A DNA stretch of 33,537 nucleotides from a virus (Duplodnaviria; Heunggongvirae; Uroviricota; Caudoviricetes): IMG/VR virus record IMGVR_UViG_2734482570_000003; one strand, given 5' to 3'. A model generated the notes under the pieces. That model made no database searches. It was not told where the DNA came from and saw nothing but the letters and a program-made list of their open reading frames with translations. This document shows, piece after piece, positions 541 to 28,200 of this stretch; the stretch's first letter is position 1, and each line of letters opens with the position of its first letter. The position numbers and the translations under genes were made by a program.

Positions 541-1239
541 TTACTGCGAAAGTTTGTTAATGGAAAGGAAGCCGCCAAAGTTGCCGACGTTATTGCGGAA
601 CTTACAGCCACTCAGGCATTTGCTGCATTTATCCTTCGTGATATCGGACGTCGGCTGGTCATATTCATCCGCGACCGCCGGACCGCTATAACCGCACTCA
701 TCACCGCGATAGGTCCAGGTGCAGGTGTTGGCCAGCATGATGCGCCCCGGAAAAACAGCACCATCCGTTTCCGTCGGCGTGGACAACACAAAGGAGGCAC
801 TGACCGCGCTCAGTTCGCTGCACTGCTCGACGCGCCAGCGGCTGATCACCTCCTGCTCCGGATCGGCATCACTGTTTCCGTTGACGAAATTCACCGCATC
901 CAGAAAACGGGCGTAAACCTTACGCCTGACCACCGTTCCGCCGACCAGACTCTGCAGATCTTCCACCATCCCGGTGACCATACCGTACAGGTTAGAAACC
1001 GTCAGCGTGGGGCGCGTACTGGTGCCTTTGCCATTCAGTTCAAAACCGCTCCCCTGAATGGGATACGCCTGATACTGTCGCCCCTGCCAGGTGACCGGCT
1101 CACCTTTTTCGTTCTGCTCATTACAGAAAAAATAACGTTCTCCACCGACCTCTGTCAGATCGATTTCCCAGAGCACCACGCTGGCCGACTGCTCCGCACG
1201 GGTGCATTCATTCAGTGTTTCCTGTTGGATATCCTGCAT
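541..1239 (-). CDS. L: Minor tail protein L
   Basis: 232-aa ORF; translation matches lambda gpL as remembered; overlaps M stop. Confidence 0.9.
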   Translation of the reverse strand: MQDIQQETLNECTRAEQSASVVLWEIDLTEVGGERYFFCNEQNEKGEPVTWQGRQYQAYPIQGSGFELNGKGTSTRPTLTVSNLYGMVTGMVEDLQSLVGGTVVRRKVYARFLDAVNFVNGNSDADPEQEVISRWRVEQCSELSAVSASFVLSTPTETDGAVFPGRIMLANTCTWTYRGDECGYSGPAVADEYDQPTSDITKDKCSKCLSGCKFRNNVGNFGGFLSINKLSQ

Positions 1240-1568
1240 CAGTTCACCACCTGTTCAAACTCTGCGCTGAACTCAACACGCAGCATACTGACCCGCGACG
1301 ACCATTTTGCGCAGGTCACCTTTATCTGCCGCCACTCATAAGGCGGCGTCCACAGAAAGGCTTTCCAGCCCCCGTGCTCAGCCAGAAACGACTCCAGCGC
1401 TGTGGCCTCCCAACGGGGAACAGAAAGCGTCACGCTGTACGTTTTCAGGTCAGCGTTCAGCCCGGCAGGCGCTCGCTGGGAATAGCCATCACCAAAGCGC
1501 ACCTTTCTTACGGAAGGGGCCGAAGCCACATCCATACCGGGTTTCACTTTCCAGCGGAAGGTTTTCAT
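1239..1568 (-). CDS. M: Minor tail protein M
   Basis: 109-aa ORF in conserved H-M-L order; ATGA-type overlap with H. Confidence 0.9.
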   Translation of the reverse strand: MKTFRWKVKPGMDVASAPSVRKVRFGDGYSQRAPAGLNADLKTYSVTLSVPRWEATALESFLAEHGGWKAFLWTPPYEWRQIKVTCAKWSSRVSMLRVEFSAEFEQVVN

Positions 1569-4126
1569 CGTCCACCTCCGGAGAACAGACCACCATCGCG
1601 CATCTGCCCGGTCACAACATCCATTGCCGCCTTACGGGCTACGTCATAAACAGCCTTCAGTGCCTGTGGCCCTATCTGACCGTTCGTGCCGTCGTTGTTA
1701 ATCACCACATGGTTATTCTGCTCAAACGTCCCGGACGCCTGCGACCGGCTGTCTGCCATGCTGCCCGGTGTACCGACATAACCGCCGGTGGCATAGCCGC
1801 GCATCAGCCGGTAGAGATTCCCCACGCCAATCCGGCTGGTTGCCTCCTTCGTGAAGACAAACTCACCACGGTGAACAATCCCCGCTGGCTCATATTTGCC
1901 GCCGGTTCCCGTAAATCCCCCGGTCGCAAAATGGAATTTCGCCGCAGCGGCCTGAATGGCTGTACCACCTGACGCTGATGCGCCACCACTGGCAGCACCG
2001 CCAATGGCGCTGCCGATACTCCCGACAATCCCCACCATTGCCTGCTTAAGCAGAATTTCTGTCATCATGGACAGCACGGAACGGGTGAAGCTGCGCCAGT
2101 TCTGTTCACTGCCGGTCAGCATCGCCGCCATATTCTGTGCAATACCATCAAAGGTCTGCGTGGCAGCACTTTTAACCTGCGACATACTGTCCGTGGCGCT
2201 CTCTTCCCACTCACTCCAGCCGGACTTCAGGCCTGCCATCCAGCTCCCGCGAAGCTGGTCTTCAGCCGCCCAGGTCTTTTTCTGCTCTGACATGACGTTA
2301 TTCAGCGCCAGCGGATTATCGCCATACTGTTCCTTCAGACGCTGTTCCGTGGCTTCCCGCGCTGCCTGCCGGTCAGTCAGCCCCCGGCTTTTCGCATCAA
2401 TGGCGGCCCGTTTTGCCCGTTGCTGCTGTGCGAATTTATCCGCCTGCTGCGCCAGCGCATTCAGGTGCTCCTGATACGTGACCTTATCGCCAAGTGCAGC
2501 CAGCTGGCGCTTGTACTCCAGCGTCTCGTCTTTATGCGCCAGCAGGGATTTCTCCTGTGCAGACAGCTGGCGACGTTGCGCCGCCTCCTCCAGTACCGCG
2601 AACTGATTCTCCGCCTTCCACAAATCCCGGCGCTGCTGGCTGATTTTCTCATTCGCTCCGGCATGCTTCTCCAGCGTCCGGAGTTCTGCCTGAAGCGTCA
2701 GCAGGGCAGCATGAGCACTGTCTTCCTGACGATCGCCCGCAGACACCTTCACGCCGGACTGCTTCGGCTTTTTCAGCGTCGCTTCATAATCCTTTTTCGC
2801 TGCCGCCATCAGCGTGTTGTAATCTGCCTGCAGGATTTTCCCGTCTTTCAGTGCCTTATTCAGTTCTTCCTGACGGGCGGTATATTTCTCCAGCGGCGTT
2901 TGCAGGCGTTCGTAAGCCTTCTGCGCCTCTTCGGTATATTTCAGCCGTGACGCTTCGGTATCGCTCTGCTGCTGCGCATTTTTGTCCTGTTGACTCTGCT
3001 GCTCAGCCTTCTTTCGGGCGGCTTCAAGCGCAAGACGGGCCTTTTCACGATCATCCCAGTAACGCGCCCGCGCTTCATCGTTAACAAAATAATCATCCTT
3101 GCGCAGATTCCAGATGTCGTCTGCTTTCTTAAACGCAGCCTCTGCCTTAATCAGCATCTCCTGAGCGGTATCAGGACGACCAATATCCAGCACCGCATCC
3201 CACATGGATTTGAATGCCCGTGCTGTCCTGTCTGCCCAGGTCTCCAGCGTGCCCATGTTCTCTTTCAGGCGGCGGGTCTGGTCATCAAACCCTTTCGTTG
3301 CGGCCTCGTTCGCCGCCTGCAATGCCCCGGCTTCATCGCCGGAACGCTGCAACTGAGCAACATACGCAATCTGCTCCGCCGTCACGTTATGGAACTGGCG
3401 TGCCATCGCCGTCAGCCCCGACGTCGGGTCTGTGGTCAGCTTCCCGAAGGCTTCAGCGACCTTGTCCACCTCCACGCCGGATGCAGAGGAGAAACGCGCC
3501 ACACTCTGGCTGATGGACGCAATCTGAGCCTCACCGCTTACCCCCGCCTTAACCAGTGCGCTGAGTGACTCGCTGGTCTGGTTAAACGTCAGCCCTGCCG
3601 CCTGCCCGGCTCTGGACAGGACCAGCATGCGATCTGCCGTCAGTCCCGCCTGATTGCCGGAAAGGACCAGCGTTTTGTTGAAATCGGACAGGGTTGAGTT
3701 GCCCTGATACCAGGCATACGCCAGCGCACCGGTCGCCACCGCCAGCGAGGTGGCCCCCACCATCGGCAGGGTGATCGCACCGGCAAGCCCCCTGAACATG
3801 GGGATCATCCCGCCGAAGGAGTCCTTAACCTGCCCCCCCTGTTGCAGCAGGATCAGCCACGGACTTTGCCCGCCTGCAAGCTGCGTGGCCACGTCGGTGA
3901 ACTGTGCAGGCAGCATACGCATGGCGGCTTTATACTGCCCGACGGAAATCCCCGCTTTCTGTGCAGCCAGCGCCTGTCGGCTCAGCGACTGTTCAACGAC
4001 TGCCGCTGTTTTTTTCGCATCACTTTCCGTACCGGAAAAATGACGCCTGACTCTGGCCATCTGCTCGTCAAATCTGGCCGCATCCAGACTCAAATCAACG
4101 ACCAGATCGCCTACCGGTTCAGCCAT
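1565..4126 (-). CDS. H: Tail tape measure protein H
   Basis: 853 aa, Ala/Gln-rich coiled-coil middle, Gly-rich C-terminus; same length as lambda gpH. Confidence 0.95.
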   Translation of the reverse strand: MAEPVGDLVVDLSLDAARFDEQMARVRRHFSGTESDAKKTAAVVEQSLSRQALAAQKAGISVGQYKAAMRMLPAQFTDVATQLAGGQSPWLILLQQGGQVKDSFGGMIPMFRGLAGAITLPMVGATSLAVATGALAYAWYQGNSTLSDFNKTLVLSGNQAGLTADRMLVLSRAGQAAGLTFNQTSESLSALVKAGVSGEAQIASISQSVARFSSASGVEVDKVAEAFGKLTTDPTSGLTAMARQFHNVTAEQIAYVAQLQRSGDEAGALQAANEAATKGFDDQTRRLKENMGTLETWADRTARAFKSMWDAVLDIGRPDTAQEMLIKAEAAFKKADDIWNLRKDDYFVNDEARARYWDDREKARLALEAARKKAEQQSQQDKNAQQQSDTEASRLKYTEEAQKAYERLQTPLEKYTARQEELNKALKDGKILQADYNTLMAAAKKDYEATLKKPKQSGVKVSAGDRQEDSAHAALLTLQAELRTLEKHAGANEKISQQRRDLWKAENQFAVLEEAAQRRQLSAQEKSLLAHKDETLEYKRQLAALGDKVTYQEHLNALAQQADKFAQQQRAKRAAIDAKSRGLTDRQAAREATEQRLKEQYGDNPLALNNVMSEQKKTWAAEDQLRGSWMAGLKSGWSEWEESATDSMSQVKSAATQTFDGIAQNMAAMLTGSEQNWRSFTRSVLSMMTEILLKQAMVGIVGSIGSAIGGAASGGASASGGTAIQAAAAKFHFATGGFTGTGGKYEPAGIVHRGEFVFTKEATSRIGVGNLYRLMRGYATGGYVGTPGSMADSRSQASGTFEQNNHVVINNDGTNGQIGPQALKAVYDVARKAAMDVVTGQMRDGGLFSGGGR

Positions 4127-14700: not shown

Positions 14701-14915
14701 TGAGAATAATTATCACTTGCATTAATATCCGGCTTCTTCCACCCTCGCACAGGACTGGCGAGCATGAGGGACAAACCCGCGAATCATTAGCGCGGTAAAA
14801 ACCCGGTGTGCATCGTTTTTGATTATTTCCGCACACTCGCGCAGAGGAGTTCCCCGTCGGGCTACGGTCATGGTTAATGCGGAAATACGGCGACGATGCA
14901 GCGCGGTATTTAATG

Positions 14916-14931
14916 TGCGACCACGGTCGCA
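14916..14931. repeat. sopC-like centromere palindrome TGCGACC-AC-GGTCGCA (copy 1 of 4)
   Basis: Perfect 7-bp inverted arms around a 2-bp centre; one change per arm from the F-plasmid SopB site TGGGACC-AC-GGTCCCA. Confidence 0.6.
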
Positions 14932-14951
14932 AACGAGAAACAAAGAGATTT

Positions 14952-16603: not shown

Positions 16604-17725
16604 TTACTCAAATAACTTTTTCACTTCATCAACTGTCTGAAGATAACGTTCGCCCTCAATCTCAATACCTATTGCCTGACGTCCTAACTTCAGCGCAGCT
16701 TTAATAGTTGAGCCTGATCCCATAAAGAAATCGGCAACGATATCTCCGGGGCGTGAACTACTCTTTATAATATGTTCCATCATCGCTGCAGGTTTTTCAC
16801 ATGGGTGCTTGCCAGGATAATATTGCACAGGAGGAAACTCCCATACATCGGTATAAGGTACATCAGCAGTAACATGAAATGGACGGCGTAAATTTTCATA
16901 CTGAGCCTTCAAATCATCATACTGCTTCTTTACTTCCTCATAATGCAATTTCAGATCGCTATAACGCTTTTCATGTTCTGAATAATCAAAATTAAAAGGA
17001 TATGGACACGGGACACCGAGTGAATCTGCCTTCCTGCGAAATAATTCGCATAGTTTATTAAAATCAATTAATGATGGAAGCCGCCACTGCGAATAAGAAA
17101 ACCAGTGTGAACACATCTGCTTTCCTGTCGCTGAATTAATGTCTGCGGCTGATATATCTAACTGACGGCGAGCCAGCGAAAAAGCATCAATTAGTGGAGA
17201 AAAAATATTTTTTCTTAAATCTGCACATTTTGAAGCATAACCTGACTGACCTTTAGCATAACCTGACGCGCCGTAATGCTCTGCAAATAATATTCTTTCA
17301 GTAGCAGGAAAATAAGCCCTTAAACTTTCTTTATGACAACCGCGCCACATACCACTGGGTTTAGCCCAAATGATATGGTTCAGAACATTGAAACGGTCGC
17401 GAGTTAATAATTCAATTTTTGACGCAAGGCGAGAGCCGGTAAACATATACAGGCTGCCATTAGGGGCCAATATCCGCCAAAATTCTGCCAAAAATTCGTC
17501 AATCCACCCCAAAAAGTCAGCATCGCTATCCCACTGGTTATCCCATGCGTTAGCCTTTACGCCGAAGTATGGTGGGTCTGTTGCAATCAAATTGACCGAG
17601 TTATCAGGGATGGTTTTGATAAATTGCAGAGAATCTGCGCAAACGAGTTGTGCGCCATGAATATTAGTGGTTTTGAACATAGCTATTATTTTTTTGCCTG
17701 GGTAAGCTAACCCGGCGATGCGCAT
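16604..17725 (-). CDS. DNA methyltransferase, beta-class amino-MTase (N6-adenine or N4-cytosine), orphan
   Basis: DPPY motif IV near the N-terminus (LIATDPPYFG) and motif I near the C-terminus (DFFMGSGST); no adjacent restriction endonuclease candidate. Alternative start at 17680. Confidence 0.85.
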   Translation of the reverse strand: MRIAGLAYPGKKIIAMFKTTNIHGAQLVCADSLQFIKTIPDNSVNLIATDPPYFGVKANAWDNQWDSDADFLGWIDEFLAEFWRILAPNGSLYMFTGSRLASKIELLTRDRFNVLNHIIWAKPSGMWRGCHKESLRAYFPATERILFAEHYGASGYAKGQSGYASKCADLRKNIFSPLIDAFSLARRQLDISAADINSATGKQMCSHWFSYSQWRLPSLIDFNKLCELFRRKADSLGVPCPYPFNFDYSEHEKRYSDLKLHYEEVKKQYDDLKAQYENLRRPFHVTADVPYTDVWEFPPVQYYPGKHPCEKPAAMMEHIIKSSSRPGDIVADFFMGSGSTIKAALKLGRQAIGIEIEGERYLQTVDEVKKLFE

Positions 17726-17814
17726 CGCGGGTGGGCTTTAGGTTCAGCCTATAGCTCTGGCATGGGTTGACCGCAGGACAAGCTGCAACTTGTCCTGCGC
17801 CCACTTTTCAGGCA

Positions 17815-17837
17815 CAAAAAAACCGCCATAAAGGCGG
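17815..17837 (-). terminator. Rho-independent terminator upstream of the methyltransferase gene
   Basis: Minus strand CCGCC-TTTAT-GGCGG followed by T7-8 (plus-strand A-run 17815-17822). Confidence 0.6.
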
Positions 17838-17925
17838 CTTGTTGGCTGTTGGGTACAAAAAACCCAACTTAACAAAACAATAACTAAAAACCGTCATTTT
17901 GCCAAGCTTTTTCGTTTTTGTGCTG

Positions 17926-17941
17926 TGCGACCGTGGTCGCA
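17926..17941. repeat. sopC-like centromere palindrome TGCGACC-GT-GGTCGCA (copy 2; extends to 22-bp CTGTGCGACCGTGGTCGCACAG)
   Basis: Perfect palindrome; exact reverse-orientation match to copies 1 and 3. Confidence 0.6.
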
Positions 17942-17947
17942 CAGCTT

Positions 17948-18175
17948 TTAGAAAGTTGCCTGCTTATATTCATCGGTCAAAGAATATCGACCAGATCCGC
18001 TACGCTTTGCAACCCCAAAACAGATCATCTGTTCGATGATAAATTCAACGGCAGCTTGACTCAAAAAACAGGCTTCGCTTAACTCTTTCAGGGAAATGCG
18101 TGGGTATCCACGCATAACACATTCCACACTCAGGGCCGCTTCAGTCATATTTCCACGAATTTCATTAATATTCAT
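17948..18175 (-). CDS. Small winged-helix DNA-binding protein (hypothetical)
   Basis: 75 aa; helix-turn-wing pattern ...ISLKELSEACFLSQAAVEFIIEQMICFGVAKRSGSGRYSLT. Confidence 0.5.
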   Translation of the reverse strand: MNINEIRGNMTEAALSVECVMRGYPRISLKELSEACFLSQAAVEFIIEQMICFGVAKRSGSGRYSLTDEYKQATF

Positions 18176-18188
18176 AACGCCTCTCTAA

Positions 18189-18410
18189 TCAATCTTGAAA
18201 CTGGAAATCAACATCAGCCATAAAGCGGTTCAACTCAGCCAGTTTTGGCCCCATAGTCCCAACTAAGCGACCAGCCAGTCGGTCTGTTAGGTTGGTACTG
18301 TTGAAACCATATTCCTTTTCGAAACGTTCAACCTTCTGCCACAACTCATACAGTTCGTTAGCTATCTCCGCAACGTCGTCGCGCATTTTTTCGTTACCTT
18401 GATAATTCAT
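18189..18410 (-). CDS. Hypothetical acidic helical protein
   Basis: Track ORF 18189..18428; GGAGG sits inside the ORF before the second ATG, so the likely start is MNYQGNEK. Confidence 0.45.
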   Translation of the reverse strand: MNYQGNEKMRDDVAEIANELYELWQKVERFEKEYGFNSTNLTDRLAGRLVGTMGPKLAELNRFMADVDFQFQD

Positions 18411-18575
18411 AATATCCTCCAAATTCATATAGTTAGTGGGTTATTACCCCTCAATGACACGAACTGTAACTCTGCCAAACGAACACATCCAGTGTTATTT
18501 TTCGCTTTTTAGTGAAATTTTTGATTTGCGTTGTTTTCTTGTTTTGGTGTATTTTATGGATATGGAGGCTATAAT

Positions 18576-18887
18576 ATGTTTAACGTGATAACCCACCCTG
18601 CAGCACTGGATGAACTGCTTGAACTACCAGATGATTTGCGAGGTCGCATGACCAGATTAATTGAGCGACTGGAGAAAGAAGGCAACAAACTGAAGATGCC
18701 CCATAGCCGTGTAATAGGTGGAGGGCTTTTTGAACTACGAGTAGGGGATAAAAACATCGCAAGAACGCTGTACGCCTACGCGACTGGTAACGAAATTTAT
18801 CTATTGCATGCATTTGTAAAAAAGACACAGAAAACACCGGTGAAGGCTATCGAAATCGCCAGAACTCGCCTGAAGGAGATGAACTGA
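18576..18887 (+). CDS. Type II toxin, RelE/ParE superfamily (HigB / Gp49-like)
   Basis: Track ORF 18531..18887; GGAGG 8 nt before the ATG at 18576; Gp49/HigB-like sequence pattern; toxin precedes antitoxin. Confidence 0.7.
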   Translation: MFNVITHPAALDELLELPDDLRGRMTRLIERLEKEGNKLKMPHSRVIGGGLFELRVGDKNIARTLYAYATGNEIYLLHAFVKKTQKTPVKAIEIARTRLKEMN

Positions 18888-19174
18888 TGAAAGCGAAAGG
18901 CATCCCGTTTAACGAAGTAAAAGAAAAACTCCTCAACACTCCAGAAGCCGTCAAAGGATATGAAGAGGCCGACAAAGAGCTGGAGATGGTCGAAATGTTA
19001 TACGAAATGAGGGAAAGAGCAGGTTTAACGAAATCAGCTCTGGCTGAACGAATGGGGTTGCGACCGTCAGCCATCAGCCGCCTGGAAAGCAATCCTTTAG
19101 GGGCAAGTATGAAAACTTTGGCTAAATATGCTCATGCCTGCGGCGCAACCATCGATATTCGCGCTGTTTATTAA
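18887..19174 (+). CDS. HTH XRE-family antitoxin (HigA-like)
   Basis: 95 aa; HTH segment LTKSALAERMGLRPSAISRLE; start overlaps the toxin stop (TGATG). Confidence 0.7.
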   Translation: MKAKGIPFNEVKEKLLNTPEAVKGYEEADKELEMVEMLYEMRERAGLTKSALAERMGLRPSAISRLESNPLGASMKTLAKYAHACGATIDIRAVY

Positions 19175-19216
19175 TTAGACTCTTTTACTACCCCGTCCAG
19201 AAGGGCGGGGTGTGCA

Positions 19217-19420
19217 TCAATGATGTGAACGCTCAACAGCGATAGTTTGCTGACAATGCTGGGCAATCTCTCGCGACATGTTGATGAGTCGTGAAACCTC
19301 ACCAATATGTAGGCTGGCTTCTGGAGAAGCCAGGGTGACGCTAACCAGATCCAGAACGGCGTCAATATCTCTTAAATTTGAATCGAGTTGTTCAAGAGTT
19401 GATACGGCTGCTTCAGACAT
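19217..19420 (-). CDS. Hypothetical protein
   Basis: 67-aa ORF convergent with the toxin-antitoxin pair; no recognisable motif. Confidence 0.3.
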   Translation of the reverse strand: MSEAAVSTLEQLDSNLRDIDAVLDLVSVTLASPEASLHIGEVSRLINMSREIAQHCQQTIAVERSHH

Positions 19421-19502
19421 TAAATCTCATACCATTTAACTAAAAAAGGTTATTTATACTGTATAAAATTACAGGGTAAAACTCAAACTTTACGGTCAAT
19501 TT

Positions 19503-19745
19503 TCAATGAATTAACTGCGTAAACTGCTGTGTGACCCGATACTTATGCTCTCTCCCTATGCCACGATCAACTTTCTCAAGAAGTCCAGTACGGACAGCAG
19601 AATCAAGCATCCTTTTAACAATTCTGCTATTTAACCCAACATCAAAAGAAAGCATCGAAGCGAAAACAAAACCATCACCACCATCAGAAAAGCTCTTTTC
19701 GCTCCGTTTTCGTATCATTTCAAAAAGCAATGCCTTTTTATCCAT
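19503..19745 (-). CDS. Small winged-helix DNA-binding protein (hypothetical)
   Basis: 80 aa; GGAGG RBS; wing-like RGIGREHKYRVT. Confidence 0.5.
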   Translation of the reverse strand: MDKKALLFEMIRKRSEKSFSDGGDGFVFASMLSFDVGLNSRIVKRMLDSAVRTGLLEKVDRGIGREHKYRVTQQFTQLIH

Positions 19746-22924: not shown

Positions 22925-23152
22925 CTATACCCAAATTTTCTGTTGATATGTTCTGGATGGTTTTGGCGTTCTTTCTGATTCAGGTAAATGAACATAAACG
23001 CAATATCCATCACCTAAAAAATCAGAACGAACAACCAGAACTTTCTTACCACGCCGCCGATAAGTATCTGAAAGACGCTCTGCTTCATCATGCGTCATCG
23101 GCCCCTGCTTAAATGGCGTTATTTTCATTTTCTTGTGCGACCACGGTCGCAC
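22925..23152 (-). CDS. Hypothetical small protein
   Basis: 75-aa ORF; start uncertain. Confidence 0.3.
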   Translation of the reverse strand: MRPWSHKKMKITPFKQGPMTHDEAERLSDTYRRRGKKVLVVRSDFLGDGYCVYVHLPESERTPKPSRTYQQKIWV

Positions 23153-25216: not shown

Positions 25217-28200
25217 ATGACATTAAACGATTTCTATGCGGATCGCTTTGGCAGCGATCCGTTCTCGCTAATTGAAGCAGCACGGGATGAACTAACCGAG
25301 CTGGCACAGATGGCTGGTATCAACTGGCCTGCCTGTTCCGACAACATCCAACTCAACCCTCGCGGGGGGGTTGAGCGTTACTCTTCATACAATAAAACAT
25401 CTCCAGAAGCTCTCGAAAAGAGCCTGAAAGGACGCGTAGAAATTTACTCCAGGCTGGAACACAGCAAAGGGATTGATTACCCGTTCATTAACTTCGTCCA
25501 TAAAGGCAGCGATGCTGGCTCATGGAGCGGTTTCTCCTTCCTGTTTTCTGAATATCGCCGTGAGCAACAACGGAATAATGCGACCGTGGTCGCACAACCG
25601 GAAGAAGAACGGGAAAGAATAGAACGTCAGGCCGAAGCACGTCGTCGCCGTGAAGAACAAAAACGAATTAATGACCTGAAAAACAACCAAATGGACCATG
25701 AACGTTTGCTGGGATGGCTGGCATTCCACAGCGCGTGGGAACATGCTCCGGCTGAAGACGGCTCATGGCCATATGCGATTAAAAAAGGTATTCGTGACGT
25801 TTTTAGTTCATGTGATGTGCGTCGCGTGACCAGTCACGACAGTGCGAAATGGAGCCGGGGGCCAACCACATATATGGCTATCCCTCTGGCTCACCTGGAC
25901 AGTCGTTATGATGGTCGTATTGTGGGTTGGCAGCGAATCGACAAACAAGGTGGGAAATACCAGACCAGCGCAGTAACCAGCGGCGATTTCGTCGGTGCCT
26001 GCTTTGTTATCGGTGAGCTGAAAGGGGCGCAAAACATCGCTGTTACAGAAGGTTTTGCTACTGGTGCATCCATCTGGCTTGCCACGAAAAAAGATAAACG
26101 CTTTGACGCTGTGGTTGTCGCTGTATCCGCTAACAACATGGTTCATGTTGTGGAACAACTGGTAAACATGTACCCGGCGGCAAAAATCACCTGCGCACTG
26201 GATAATGACCGGAAATCTGCCACAGAAGGAAAAGGGAATACCGGCCTGCGGACTGGCTATGAAATCTTATCGAAATTCAACGATGTCCGCTGCGTCTATC
26301 CAACTTTTGAAGACGATCCGCAAATGGAGTGCAGTGACTTCAACGACCTGCACAAACTACGTGGACTTCGTGAAACAGCACGTCAACTATTTGCAACAGC
26401 AAACCGCCTGAAAACCGGTACTGATTTGCTATCTCTGACGCTCAACCGCCTGAAGACAATTAAGCGGGATAACCGTCGTACTTTTGCCAAAGAGCTGCTG
26501 AGAGCGGTGGATATTGGCATGCTAACCTGTCCGGTTCCTAACAGTCCGTCAGATTTATTTAACATGTTCTGCATCGTTCTGCGTGAAATGGGACTGGAAA
26601 ATATCTATCGTGCTACGGTAAAAGACCACATTGCCCGTCGCCTGAATAAAAAGTGCCGTATTGCCCAGGCTCCGCGCTCTTTCAGCGAACGCATAACTGA
26701 TCCCAATAAACGACCTCAACATATCACCTATAAGCGTTTTGAAACTTCGGTAATGACCGATGATGTCCTGAAGTACGTGCAATCACTACAGGGGATAGTC
26801 ATCGTCCGTGCTGGTATGGGTTCCGGCAAATCTACTGGATTGTTACGACCGTTAATGCATAGCTCAGAACGTGGTATCTCTGTTGCTCACCGTGTCTCCC
26901 TTATTGGTGGCCTGTGGGAAATGATGACAGAAGGAAAAGGTGTAAAAGCCGATATCCTGCACTATCAGGATCCTGGCTATCAGGAAATGGCTCCATACGC
27001 CAGTAAACTGACCATCTGCATAAACTCGATTGTTAAAAACTGCTGGCAACCGTTGATGCGCCAGCACGACTATTTTGGCTTTGACGAGGCCACACAAGGG
27101 CTACGTGCCGTTCTTTCCGGTCGGGCTATGGAAAACCCGGTGGCTGTATTCAATACGCTAATTGACGCGCTGGCCAGAACGGAACAACACCCAATCATGG
27201 TGGATGCTGATGCGAACGATCTGCTGGTTGACCTGGCTGAACTAGCTATGAAACGCCGTGAAGAACTAGGTTTACCGGCATGGCTGCAGATCCACGTAAT
27301 TGAATTACCTGTTGATGTTCGCAACCGCGAAACAGGTGAGCCAATCCGGGTTTTTTATACAGAAAAAGATCGCATCATGACCGAGGTGGTGAAAGCTGTA
27401 TCGGATGGCGAAAAAATCATGTTGGCCACCGACAGCTCCACCTTTGCAGAAGATGTGACAGCCACCCTGAGAATGCATTTTCCTGGTAAGAAATTTCTGT
27501 GTGTAAACCAGAAAAACAAACCAGAGCCAGAAGTTGAAGCATTTACCAATCAACCGAAAAAGATGGTCAAAAAATACGACGGCCTGATTTATAGCCCGTC
27601 TATTTCATCCGGCGTGTCGATTGAGCAAAAACATTTTGACCGTCATTTCGGCATGTTCTGTGGTGAAGTTGTACCCAGCGACGCAGTGCAAATGCTACGC
27701 CGCGACCGTACAGCAAAAGAATTTATTATCGGCTTTGATAAAGCTCGTGCAAAACGTGAAACTGACCCGCAAAAAATAGAACGAGCATTCGCCCAGGCAT
27801 TGCTTGCTACTGCAGGTATGAACGGTGAACTGACGGATGTCGTTTTCGATGGCGACCGTATATCAATGGGGGTGGCCAATACCGACTTTACCAGGATGAA
27901 AATTAAAGCAGCCGCAATTGAAGCGTCTGCACGTAACGACTACGCCAGCAACATGATCTGCATCATGCACAGCGACGGTTATAAGATATCGCCGCTGGCC
28001 ACCGATTATGCTGCAAATGATATCGGTAAAGATCTGCGTAAAGAAGCGCGGGATATTGTGTGGGAACAGACACTGGATCTGCATCTCAATACAGAAACTC
28101 CACAAGAATCAGAGCGTGAAGAACTGCTAAAAAAACGCGCGCTAACGCTTGAAGAACAGGCAAAACTTGTCCGCTGGGATATTGAGAACGAACTGAAACT

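Follow-up and report, generated by a model that had tools for sequence, protein, structure and literature searches.

A probable toxin-first type II toxin–antitoxin operon, the counterpart of N15 gp49/gp48, in an N15-like plasmid-prophage

The pair of small plus-strand genes described here, found in a window of 33,537 nucleotides (the whole stretch of viral DNA that was analysed), most probably represents a type II, toxin-first toxin–antitoxin (TA) operon orthologous to genes 49/48 of phage N15, that is, a Tad-Ata or Gp49-type HigBA module, which by analogy with N15 would stabilize the plasmid-prophage that carries it; the probability of this reading is put at roughly 0.85. According to the mechanism proposed, both genes would share a transcript, with their translation coupled at the TGATG junction that connects them, the 103-residue toxin would most likely cleave mRNA in the ribosomal A site, in the manner of its closest solved relatives, and the 95-residue antitoxin would bind and neutralize the toxin, its XRE-type helix-turn-helix (HTH) domain probably repressing the operon at a conserved inverted repeat upstream of the promoter. 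Upon loss of the low-copy linear plasmid-prophage, the antitoxin would not be replenished and the freed toxin would halt growth; plasmid-free segregants would be removed in this way and the prophage would be stabilized. Toxicity, neutralization and stabilization are attributed to the window pair by transfer from its N15 orthologue; for the ribosome dependence of mRNA cleavage, the operator site and the lability of the antitoxin, we infer rather than observe. The module itself is already known, experimentally in N15, as far as that work is quoted in later papers, and by annotation in RefSeq, and is real but ordinary. The pair belongs with the founding member of the Gp49 family and is not a new case, a relationship that an earlier reading of the sequence alone (hereafter the sequence-only reading) had not recognized.

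Gene organization and orthologues in N15-type phages

The operon proper covers about 18500-19214, with the coding part at 18576-19174 (Table 1). The stop codon of the toxin gene and the start codon of the antitoxin gene have one base in common (cTGATGa), and each gene is preceded by its own strong Shine-Dalgarno sequence, so that the TGATG overlap and the strong ribosome-binding site proposed in the sequence-only reading are both present; the start assigned there to the pair, 18189, is wrong, since the minus-strand gp50 homologue has its 3′ end at this position. A longer version of the toxin, starting at TTG 18531, is unlikely, in view of the N15 and phiKO2 genes, which begin at the aligned ATG, and of the indels that distinguish the phages upstream of it. 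In the ORF map of the window, the minus strand carries all of the long ORFs between about 540 and 24072, and in the annotations of N15, phiKO2 and YDC107_1 it is only the TA pair that lies on the opposite strand, as in the window; both the map and the annotated relatives thus bear out the claim of a plus-strand pair inside a minus-strand block. The small divergent genes that had been placed in 17948-18410 are also real, and correspond to the homologues of gp51 and gp50.

Table 1. Positions of the genes and of the candidate regulatory elements at the TA locus of the window
Feature	Position	Strand	Details
gp51 homologue	17948-18175	-	small gene divergent from the TA pair
gp50 homologue	18189-18410	-	divergent from the TA pair; longest ORF reaches 18428
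Inverted repeat TTTCGCT-TTTT-AGTGAAA (candidate operator)	18500-18517		7-4-7; conserved block in the intergenic alignment of five phages
Candidate TA promoter	18526-18555	+	-35-like TTGCGT 18526-18531; -10-like TATTTT 18550-18555; alignment by eye
Shine-Dalgarno GGAGG, toxin gene	18564-18568	+	7 nt 5′ of the ATG; invariant in five aligned phages
Toxin gene	18576-18887	+	ATG 18576; TGA 18885-18887; 103 aa
Shine-Dalgarno AAGGAG, antitoxin gene	18873-18878	+	8 nt upstream, within the 3′ end of the toxin gene
Antitoxin gene	18887-19174	+	ATG 18887; TAA 19172-19174; 95 aa
GC-rich hairpin (probable end of transcript)	19186-19214		between the antitoxin gene and the convergent gene 19217-19420 (-)
Small antirepressor-like gene	19217-19420	-	convergent with the antitoxin gene
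LexA box CTGTATAAAATTACAG	19459-19474		precedes gene 19217-19420

In tblastn searches against phage genomes, the toxin is 92% identical to N15 gp49 and 91% identical to phiKO2 Gp49, is found without a single change (100% identity) in the Escherichia phages PhiR46_1 and YDC107_1, and reaches 88% identity in five N15-like Klebsiella phages, a sixth one, Kpn74, giving a truncated match of 91%. The Kpn74 record contains numerous ORF calls of very small size, suggestive of frameshifts from sequencing. The identity of the antitoxin is 85% to N15 gp48 and 80% to phiKO2 Gp48. The gene order is also that of N15 and phiKO2, with the adenine methylase gene gp52, gp51, gp50 and, beyond the TA pair, the gp47- and gp46-like genes sharing one strand, and gp49 and gp48 occupying the opposite one; the locus in these two phages, to which the sequence-only reading had pointed for comparison, therefore contains the orthologous pair in the same order. 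The similarity to N15 extends to the lengths of both proteins (103 and 95 aa), the one-base overlap of their genes, the flanking gp52, gp51, gp50 and gp47-like genes, the inverted repeat and the Shine-Dalgarno sequence, whereas the differences, 8 substitutions in the toxin and 14 in the antitoxin together with a heavy synonymous divergence, are allelic only. Two small genes are located between gp48 and gp46 in the window, in contrast to the single one of the N15 annotation, and in phiKO2 the Gp49 and Gp48 genes overlap by 4 nt instead of the one base of the window.

With the 1.8-kb region as query, megablast retrieved phiKO2 (one genome in two records) and a pair of near-identical E. coli phages and nothing else, N15 being missed because the synonymous divergence is saturated. 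Comparison of the toxin gene with those of N15 and phiKO2 gave a dN of about 0.06 and a dS of 1.5-2.1, with a dN/dS ratio of 0.03-0.04, and among the four genes compared with N15 the identity decreases from the toxin (92%) to the antitoxin (85%), gp50 (82%) and gp51 (71%). Such values fit an active toxin under constraint rather than a decaying protein.

The 788-bp TA module was detected in 16 of the 5426 complete genomes of E. coli, in all cases on plasmids of 36-68 kb and in none on the chromosome, and these E. coli copies are already annotated in RefSeq as a type II TA RelE/ParE family toxin and an HTH protein. Neither TA ORF is interrupted in the window, and RefSeq annotates both as intact in the 15 plasmids that are listed of the 16 from E. 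coli. In addition, the window includes an ORF of 1331 aa where, by size and position, a RepA-type gene is expected, together with a partition site of the phiKO2 type in four copies. The N15-like neighbourhood thus identifies the window as part of a linear plasmid-prophage of the Ravinvirus type, an origin that the TA pair confirms and for which it can serve as an annotation anchor.

Protein families, fold and active-site residues

The toxin matches the Pfam family Gp49 (PF05973), whose curated cut-off is 23.9 bits, with a score of 101.6 bits (E 2.5e-29) and over the complete profile (positions 1-90 of 90), and among the matches listed PF05973 is present in all of the 120 toxin homologues except one truncated fragment. 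The family is named after gp49 of phage N15. In the NCBIfam profile search no model catches the toxin, which is uninformative. The antitoxin matches Pfam HTH_3 (E 2.8e-12, residues 38-90) as well as HTH_31 (E 2.9e-9), and is organized as an N-terminal stretch of about 33 residues followed by an XRE/Cro-type HTH at 36-92; its PDB sequence matches are HigA2 of Mycobacterium tuberculosis (Mtb), HipB, and the HigA partner of Streptococcus pneumoniae HigB in 6af3 (E 9e-3). An HTH-XRE antitoxin behind the toxin, as proposed before, is borne out by the HTH_3 and PDB matches, and the profile searches of the two proteins led to Gp49 for the first and to an XRE HTH for the second. This homology (Pfam E-values of 2.5e-29 and 2.8e-12, and N15 identities of 92% and 85%) rules out a chance origin of the two ORFs.

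The AlphaFold2 model of the toxin is confident (pLDDT 85.8, pTM 0.80); its input was an alignment built from 49 diverse homologues that a database search had supplied. The model consists of two N-terminal helices (8-15 and 19-35), a four-stranded antiparallel sheet (44-48, 51-56, 62-70 and 73-82) and a C-terminal helix (89-102), a RelE-type fold. In the Foldseek comparison with the PDB, the best match is Mtb HigB1 on the ribosome (7nbu, TM 0.79), 7awk being HigB1 too, and the second is S. pneumoniae HigB (6af4/6af3, TM 0.75), followed by YoeB and RelE; in the PDB sequence search, too, the toxin is closest to S. pneumoniae HigB in 6af3 (E 5.5e-5) and to Mtb HigB1 (7nbu/7awk). A long C-terminal helix is typical of Gp49-like toxins (PMC9098466). 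Profile, structure model and synteny therefore agree on the class originally suggested for this protein, a Gp49/HigB-like toxin of the RelE/ParE superfamily.

At the level of individual residues, K58, E66, R68, N73, F93, K95, Q98 and K99 of Mtb HigB1 correspond to R45, E53, R55, N60, F80, K82, Q85 and K86 of the window toxin, respectively, and R68, R73, F90 and K92 of S. pneumoniae HigB correspond to R55, R63, F80 and K82; the equivalence of R63 with Mtb R77 is drawn through S. pneumoniae R73, by counting the register (17 residues before the conserved Phe) and not by superposition. Across the 49 aligned homologues there is no variation at E53, R55 and R63, and at least 90% of the sequences retain F80, K82 and K83. 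Replacement by alanine of K58, R68, R77, K95 or K99 abolishes the toxicity of Mtb HigB1, N73A having a strong effect (PMC9098466), and R73A is the most damaging substitution in S. pneumoniae HigB (PMC7984235). The residues that mutagenesis has identified as important in the two closest solved homologues are thus present in the window toxin, and its assignment as a toxin stands. Membership of the Gp49 family alone is no guarantee of activity, because Mtb HigB2 and HigB3, which also belong to it, are non-toxic; in these proteins K58, N73, F93 and K99 of the catalytic centre are missing (PMC9098466), four positions that do have counterparts in the window toxin, namely R45 (a conservative change), N60, F80 and K86.

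Known relatives and candidate regulatory elements

The Tad toxins of the Tad-Ata systems (COG4679/DUF891), among which N15 gp49 is included, are relatives of the RelE RNases, and the Ata antitoxins carry an Xre/Cro HTH (Makarova et al., PMC2701414). Later papers (PMC5906591, PMC2701414, PMC12977533, PMC3581621) quote Dziewit et al. 2007 on the N15 gp49-gp48 pair as a plasmid-stabilizing TA module with homology to pAMI2 tad-ata, and the same study is cited for validated toxin-first modules with a Gp49 domain (PMC5906591) and as an example of addiction modules in phage-plasmids (PMC12977533). The N15 pair has also been described as a chaperone-less E. coli prophage locus related to the TAC higBA genes of Mtb (PMC3581621), and in a 2025 survey the gp49 family is characterized as toxin-first, ribosome-dependent and mRNA-degrading (PMC11980606). 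A role as addiction module, one of the functions considered in the sequence-only reading, is therefore the established interpretation, since the pair is the direct orthologue of the published N15 TA system, as reported in the papers that cite it. Homologues from SXT stabilized a test plasmid, but their deletion did not raise the loss of SXT (PMC2654960), and stabilization of a test plasmid is for this reason no proof of the native role.

Regarding other known systems, Tad-Ata of pAMI2 from Paracoccus aminophilus and s044/s045 of SXT have a toxin of the same family and a downstream XRE-HTH antitoxin (PMC5906591, PMC2654960, PMC2701414), and were described jointly with the N15 pair as systems that stabilize plasmids, although their carriers are not phages but a circular plasmid in the first case and an integrative conjugative element in the second; they are distant systems, likened here by description. 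Mtb HigB1 (Rv1955, TAC) and S. pneumoniae HigBA resemble the window pair in the RelE fold, the long C-terminal helix, the toxin-first order and the XRE-HTH antitoxin, but the identity of these two toxins to that of the window is only 24-27%. The Mtb TAC locus has a SecB-like chaperone gene, in contrast to the window pair, which is without one, and the C-terminal helix of the window toxin is shorter, stopping close to the equivalent of Mtb K113, so that the tRNA contact R117 of Mtb HigB1 is left without a counterpart. The classical HigBA systems (Rts1/Proteus vulgaris, E. coli, and HigB2 of Vibrio cholerae) also combine a toxin-first order, an RNase of the RelE superfamily and an HTH antitoxin, but their toxins belong to other Pfam families and gave Foldseek E-values of 0.07-0.16 (E. 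coli and Shigella) or about 4e-3 (V. cholerae HigB2); toxins with a Gp49 domain have been described as little similar to the classical HigB toxins (PMC5906591).

With respect to regulation, the inverted repeat upstream of the toxin gene is perfect (TTTCACT/AGTGAAA) in N15 and YDC107_1, contains one mismatch in the window, and shows one-base differences in phiKO2 (in the loop) and KpLi5 (in the right arm); 8 nt separate it from the -35-like hexamer downstream. With a spacing of roughly one helical turn between its arms, it could plausibly serve as the operator of a dimeric HTH antitoxin. In the N15 record this repeat is labelled as a putative terminator stem-loop (L002 2924-2944), a rho-independent terminator reading that is unlikely for an element with an A/T-rich stem, which folds weakly as RNA (-6.2 kcal/mol, z -2.1) and, read on the same strand, precedes the gene. 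The promoter is likewise a candidate, and probably a weak one. At the aligned position N15 presents TTGTGT-17 nt-TATATT, the spacer being 1 nt shorter in the window, and the scan for consensus sigma-70 promoters and terminators gave no promoter for the operon, the sites being no commoner than in shuffled sequence.

Downstream of the antitoxin gene, the GC-rich hairpin has a folding energy of -19.4 kcal/mol (z -3.6) on the plus strand and of -14.6 kcal/mol on the minus strand, and probably marks where the operon transcript ends; a U-tract is absent from both strands, and the terminator scan missed the hairpin for want of a T run. Other repeats of the region were rejected: I1 and I2 are merely two divergent regions of ribosome-binding site and start codon that resemble each other, and I3, whose arms are 18436-18447 and 18585-18596, is kept neither in N15 nor in phiKO2. 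In the Rfam scan of 17700-19600, only sub-threshold chance matches were obtained (AgrB, RyhB and ctRNA_pGA1), with no sign of a known antisense or small RNA.

The TA slot in related phages and alternative roles of the pair

In Yersinia phage PY54 and Enterobacter phage MStein-2023a, gp51 is present and gp49 is not, the same slot being occupied by hicA and hicB. The slot genes of both phages match the Pfam families HicA_toxin and HicB-like_2; the exchange pattern is one of gp49/gp48 in the N15/phiKO2 lineage and hicAB in PY54 and MStein-2023a. In the latter, the TGATG junction comes directly after hicAB and leads into a gp48 homologue with a +1 frameshift; hicAB has therefore taken the place of gp49 together with the promoter, leaving an orphan antitoxin in decay. 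One slot with two unrelated TA types and a decaying orphan antitoxin offers a clean natural case of TA cassette replacement.

This turnover is of the kind typical of defence hotspots, and may indicate that the pair serves chiefly in anti-phage defence, by abortive infection or by superinfection exclusion, the latter an option already raised in the sequence-only reading, rather than in plasmid addiction: an infection that shuts down host transcription or degrades the antitoxin would free the RNase, which would abort the infection. RelE/ParE toxins have been discussed as defence toxins (PMC11980606), and PADLOC gave weak matches, one between the toxin and the C-terminal region of NsnC (E 2.6e-7) and others between the antitoxin and HTH components. 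These matches, however, reflect only the common RelE-like and HTH domains, cassette turnover is expected equally of addiction modules, and the literature searches found no experimental or comparative support for defence by this pair; a predominant defence role is accordingly unlikely, although the two roles are compatible. Decay at the locus is also documented, by the frameshifted orphan gp48 of MStein-2023a and the truncated toxin of the Kpn74 record, and, since non-toxic members of the Gp49 family exist (PMC9098466), the window toxin might be dead as well, the locus being then a decayed or domesticated module reduced to an HTH regulator and its partner, as in Mtb HigB2/HigB3. Nevertheless, the aligned active-site positions are kept in the window toxin, K58 as arginine, the toxin gene is conserved above the antitoxin and the neighbouring genes with a dN/dS of 0.03-0.04, the ORFs of both proteins are intact in the window and in the 15 listed of the 16 E. 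coli plasmids (RefSeq annotation), and the N15 orthologue is reported, in papers that quote the original work, as a working TA system (PMC5906591, PMC2701414, PMC3581621), all of which makes a dead toxin extremely unlikely.

The other side of the slot is occupied by the small convergent gene, which is probably the SOS-controlled antirepressor AntC of N15. In N15, whose induction depends on the LexA-controlled antirepressor AntC, an unannotated ORF of 56% identity with a LexA box is found at the corresponding place, and the convergence of the TA genes with a LexA-box gene is kept in N15, YDC107_1 and MStein-2023a, in the last one despite the swapped TA type. It could be argued from this conservation, from the control that AntC exerts on N15 induction and from the hairpin without a U-tract between the two convergent genes that the TA module is wired into the lysis-lysogeny decision, either through transcripts that read past the hairpin and damp the antirepressor or through an SOS-activated toxin that modulates induction. 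Such an argument is positional, and a conserved neighbourhood is expected from common descent, so this wiring is considered very improbable. The broader proposal that the slot from gp50/gp51 to the antirepressor is a dedicated TA site with exchangeable content in N15-type telomere phages, functionally coupled to the LexA/antirepressor induction switch and with a role in lysis-lysogeny or abortive exclusion and not in addiction alone, is in turn regarded as quite improbable; stabilization of the plasmid-prophage is the preferred function. A comparison of the slot among these phages could still guide experiments into the reason for which some TA module is always retained beside the SOS antirepressor in these phage-plasmids. 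In PY54 the arrangement is convergent too, but there a dinI-like gene stands between the LexA box and the antirepressor gene.

Cassette replacement at the gp49/gp48 slot

In two related telomere phages, PY54 and Enterobacter phage MStein-2023a, the slot of the gp49 toxin and gp48 antitoxin genes is taken by hicA/hicB. The MStein-2023a record, in which the TGATG junction is retained and a gp48 homologue carrying a +1 frameshift lies directly downstream of hicB, is a visible trace of the replacement of one toxin–antitoxin cassette by another, with the antitoxin left orphaned and decaying afterwards. The locus of Klebsiella phage Kpn74 (L006, 1501-2100), where the gp49 homologue is truncated, covering query residues 1-87 only, and the annotation shows no antitoxin, looks more like the product of sequencing frameshifts than of biology, because numerous genes nearby are broken into very short ORFs.

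Putative regulatory elements on either side of the operon

Between the divergent gp50 and gp49, the blocks CTCAAYGACACGAACTGTAACTCTG and ACATCCAG are nearly invariant in five phages, whereas the coding DNA on either side shares only 70-80% identity; they may constitute a promoter or operator of the gp50-gp51 operon, and gp51 itself shows a weak winged-helix match.

Beyond the antitoxin gene, a 67-aa gene has a perfect LexA box, CTGTATAAAATTACAG, ahead of it; an unannotated N15 ORF with 56% identity to this gene also has a LexA box, and a PY54 gene with 42% identity is annotated as antA (anti-repressor). The 67-aa gene probably encodes AntC, the SOS-controlled antirepressor of N15-type phages. 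In the N15 RefSeq record (NC_001901), the interval of approximately 380 bp that separates gene 48 from gene 47 (L002, 3600-3980) carries no annotation, and both an antirepressor-like ORF and a LexA box are found in this gap.

Dispersed palindromes

The palindrome GTGCGACC-NN-GGTCGCAC occurs four times in the window, each copy with 0 or 1 mismatch, against a chance expectation of 0.09. At 17925-17942 its sequence exactly matches a phiKO2 site just downstream of Gp51, annotated as 'putative plasmid partitioning site', and the four copies probably represent dispersed centromere sites of the plasmid-prophage.

Coordinates of the features in the window and in related phage loci
Record	Feature	Position	Strand	Context
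Window	Conserved block CTCAAYGACACGAACTGTAACTCTG	18449-18474		gp50/gp49 intergenic region
Window	Conserved block ACATCCAG	18484-18491		gp50/gp49 intergenic region
Window	67-aa gene	19217-19420	-	convergent with antitoxin gene
Window	LexA box	19459-19474		precedes 67-aa gene
Window	Palindrome copies	14915-14932, 17925-17942, 23135-23152, 25578-25595		
N15 (L002)	Antirepressor-like ORF	3664-3903	- (in locus)	gene 48/47 gap
N15 (L002)	LexA box	3916-3931		gene 48/47 gap
PY54 (L004)	hicA/hicB slot	1670-2319		counterpart of window 18500-19214
MStein-2023a (L005)	hicA/hicB slot	about 1150-2076		counterpart of window 18500-19214
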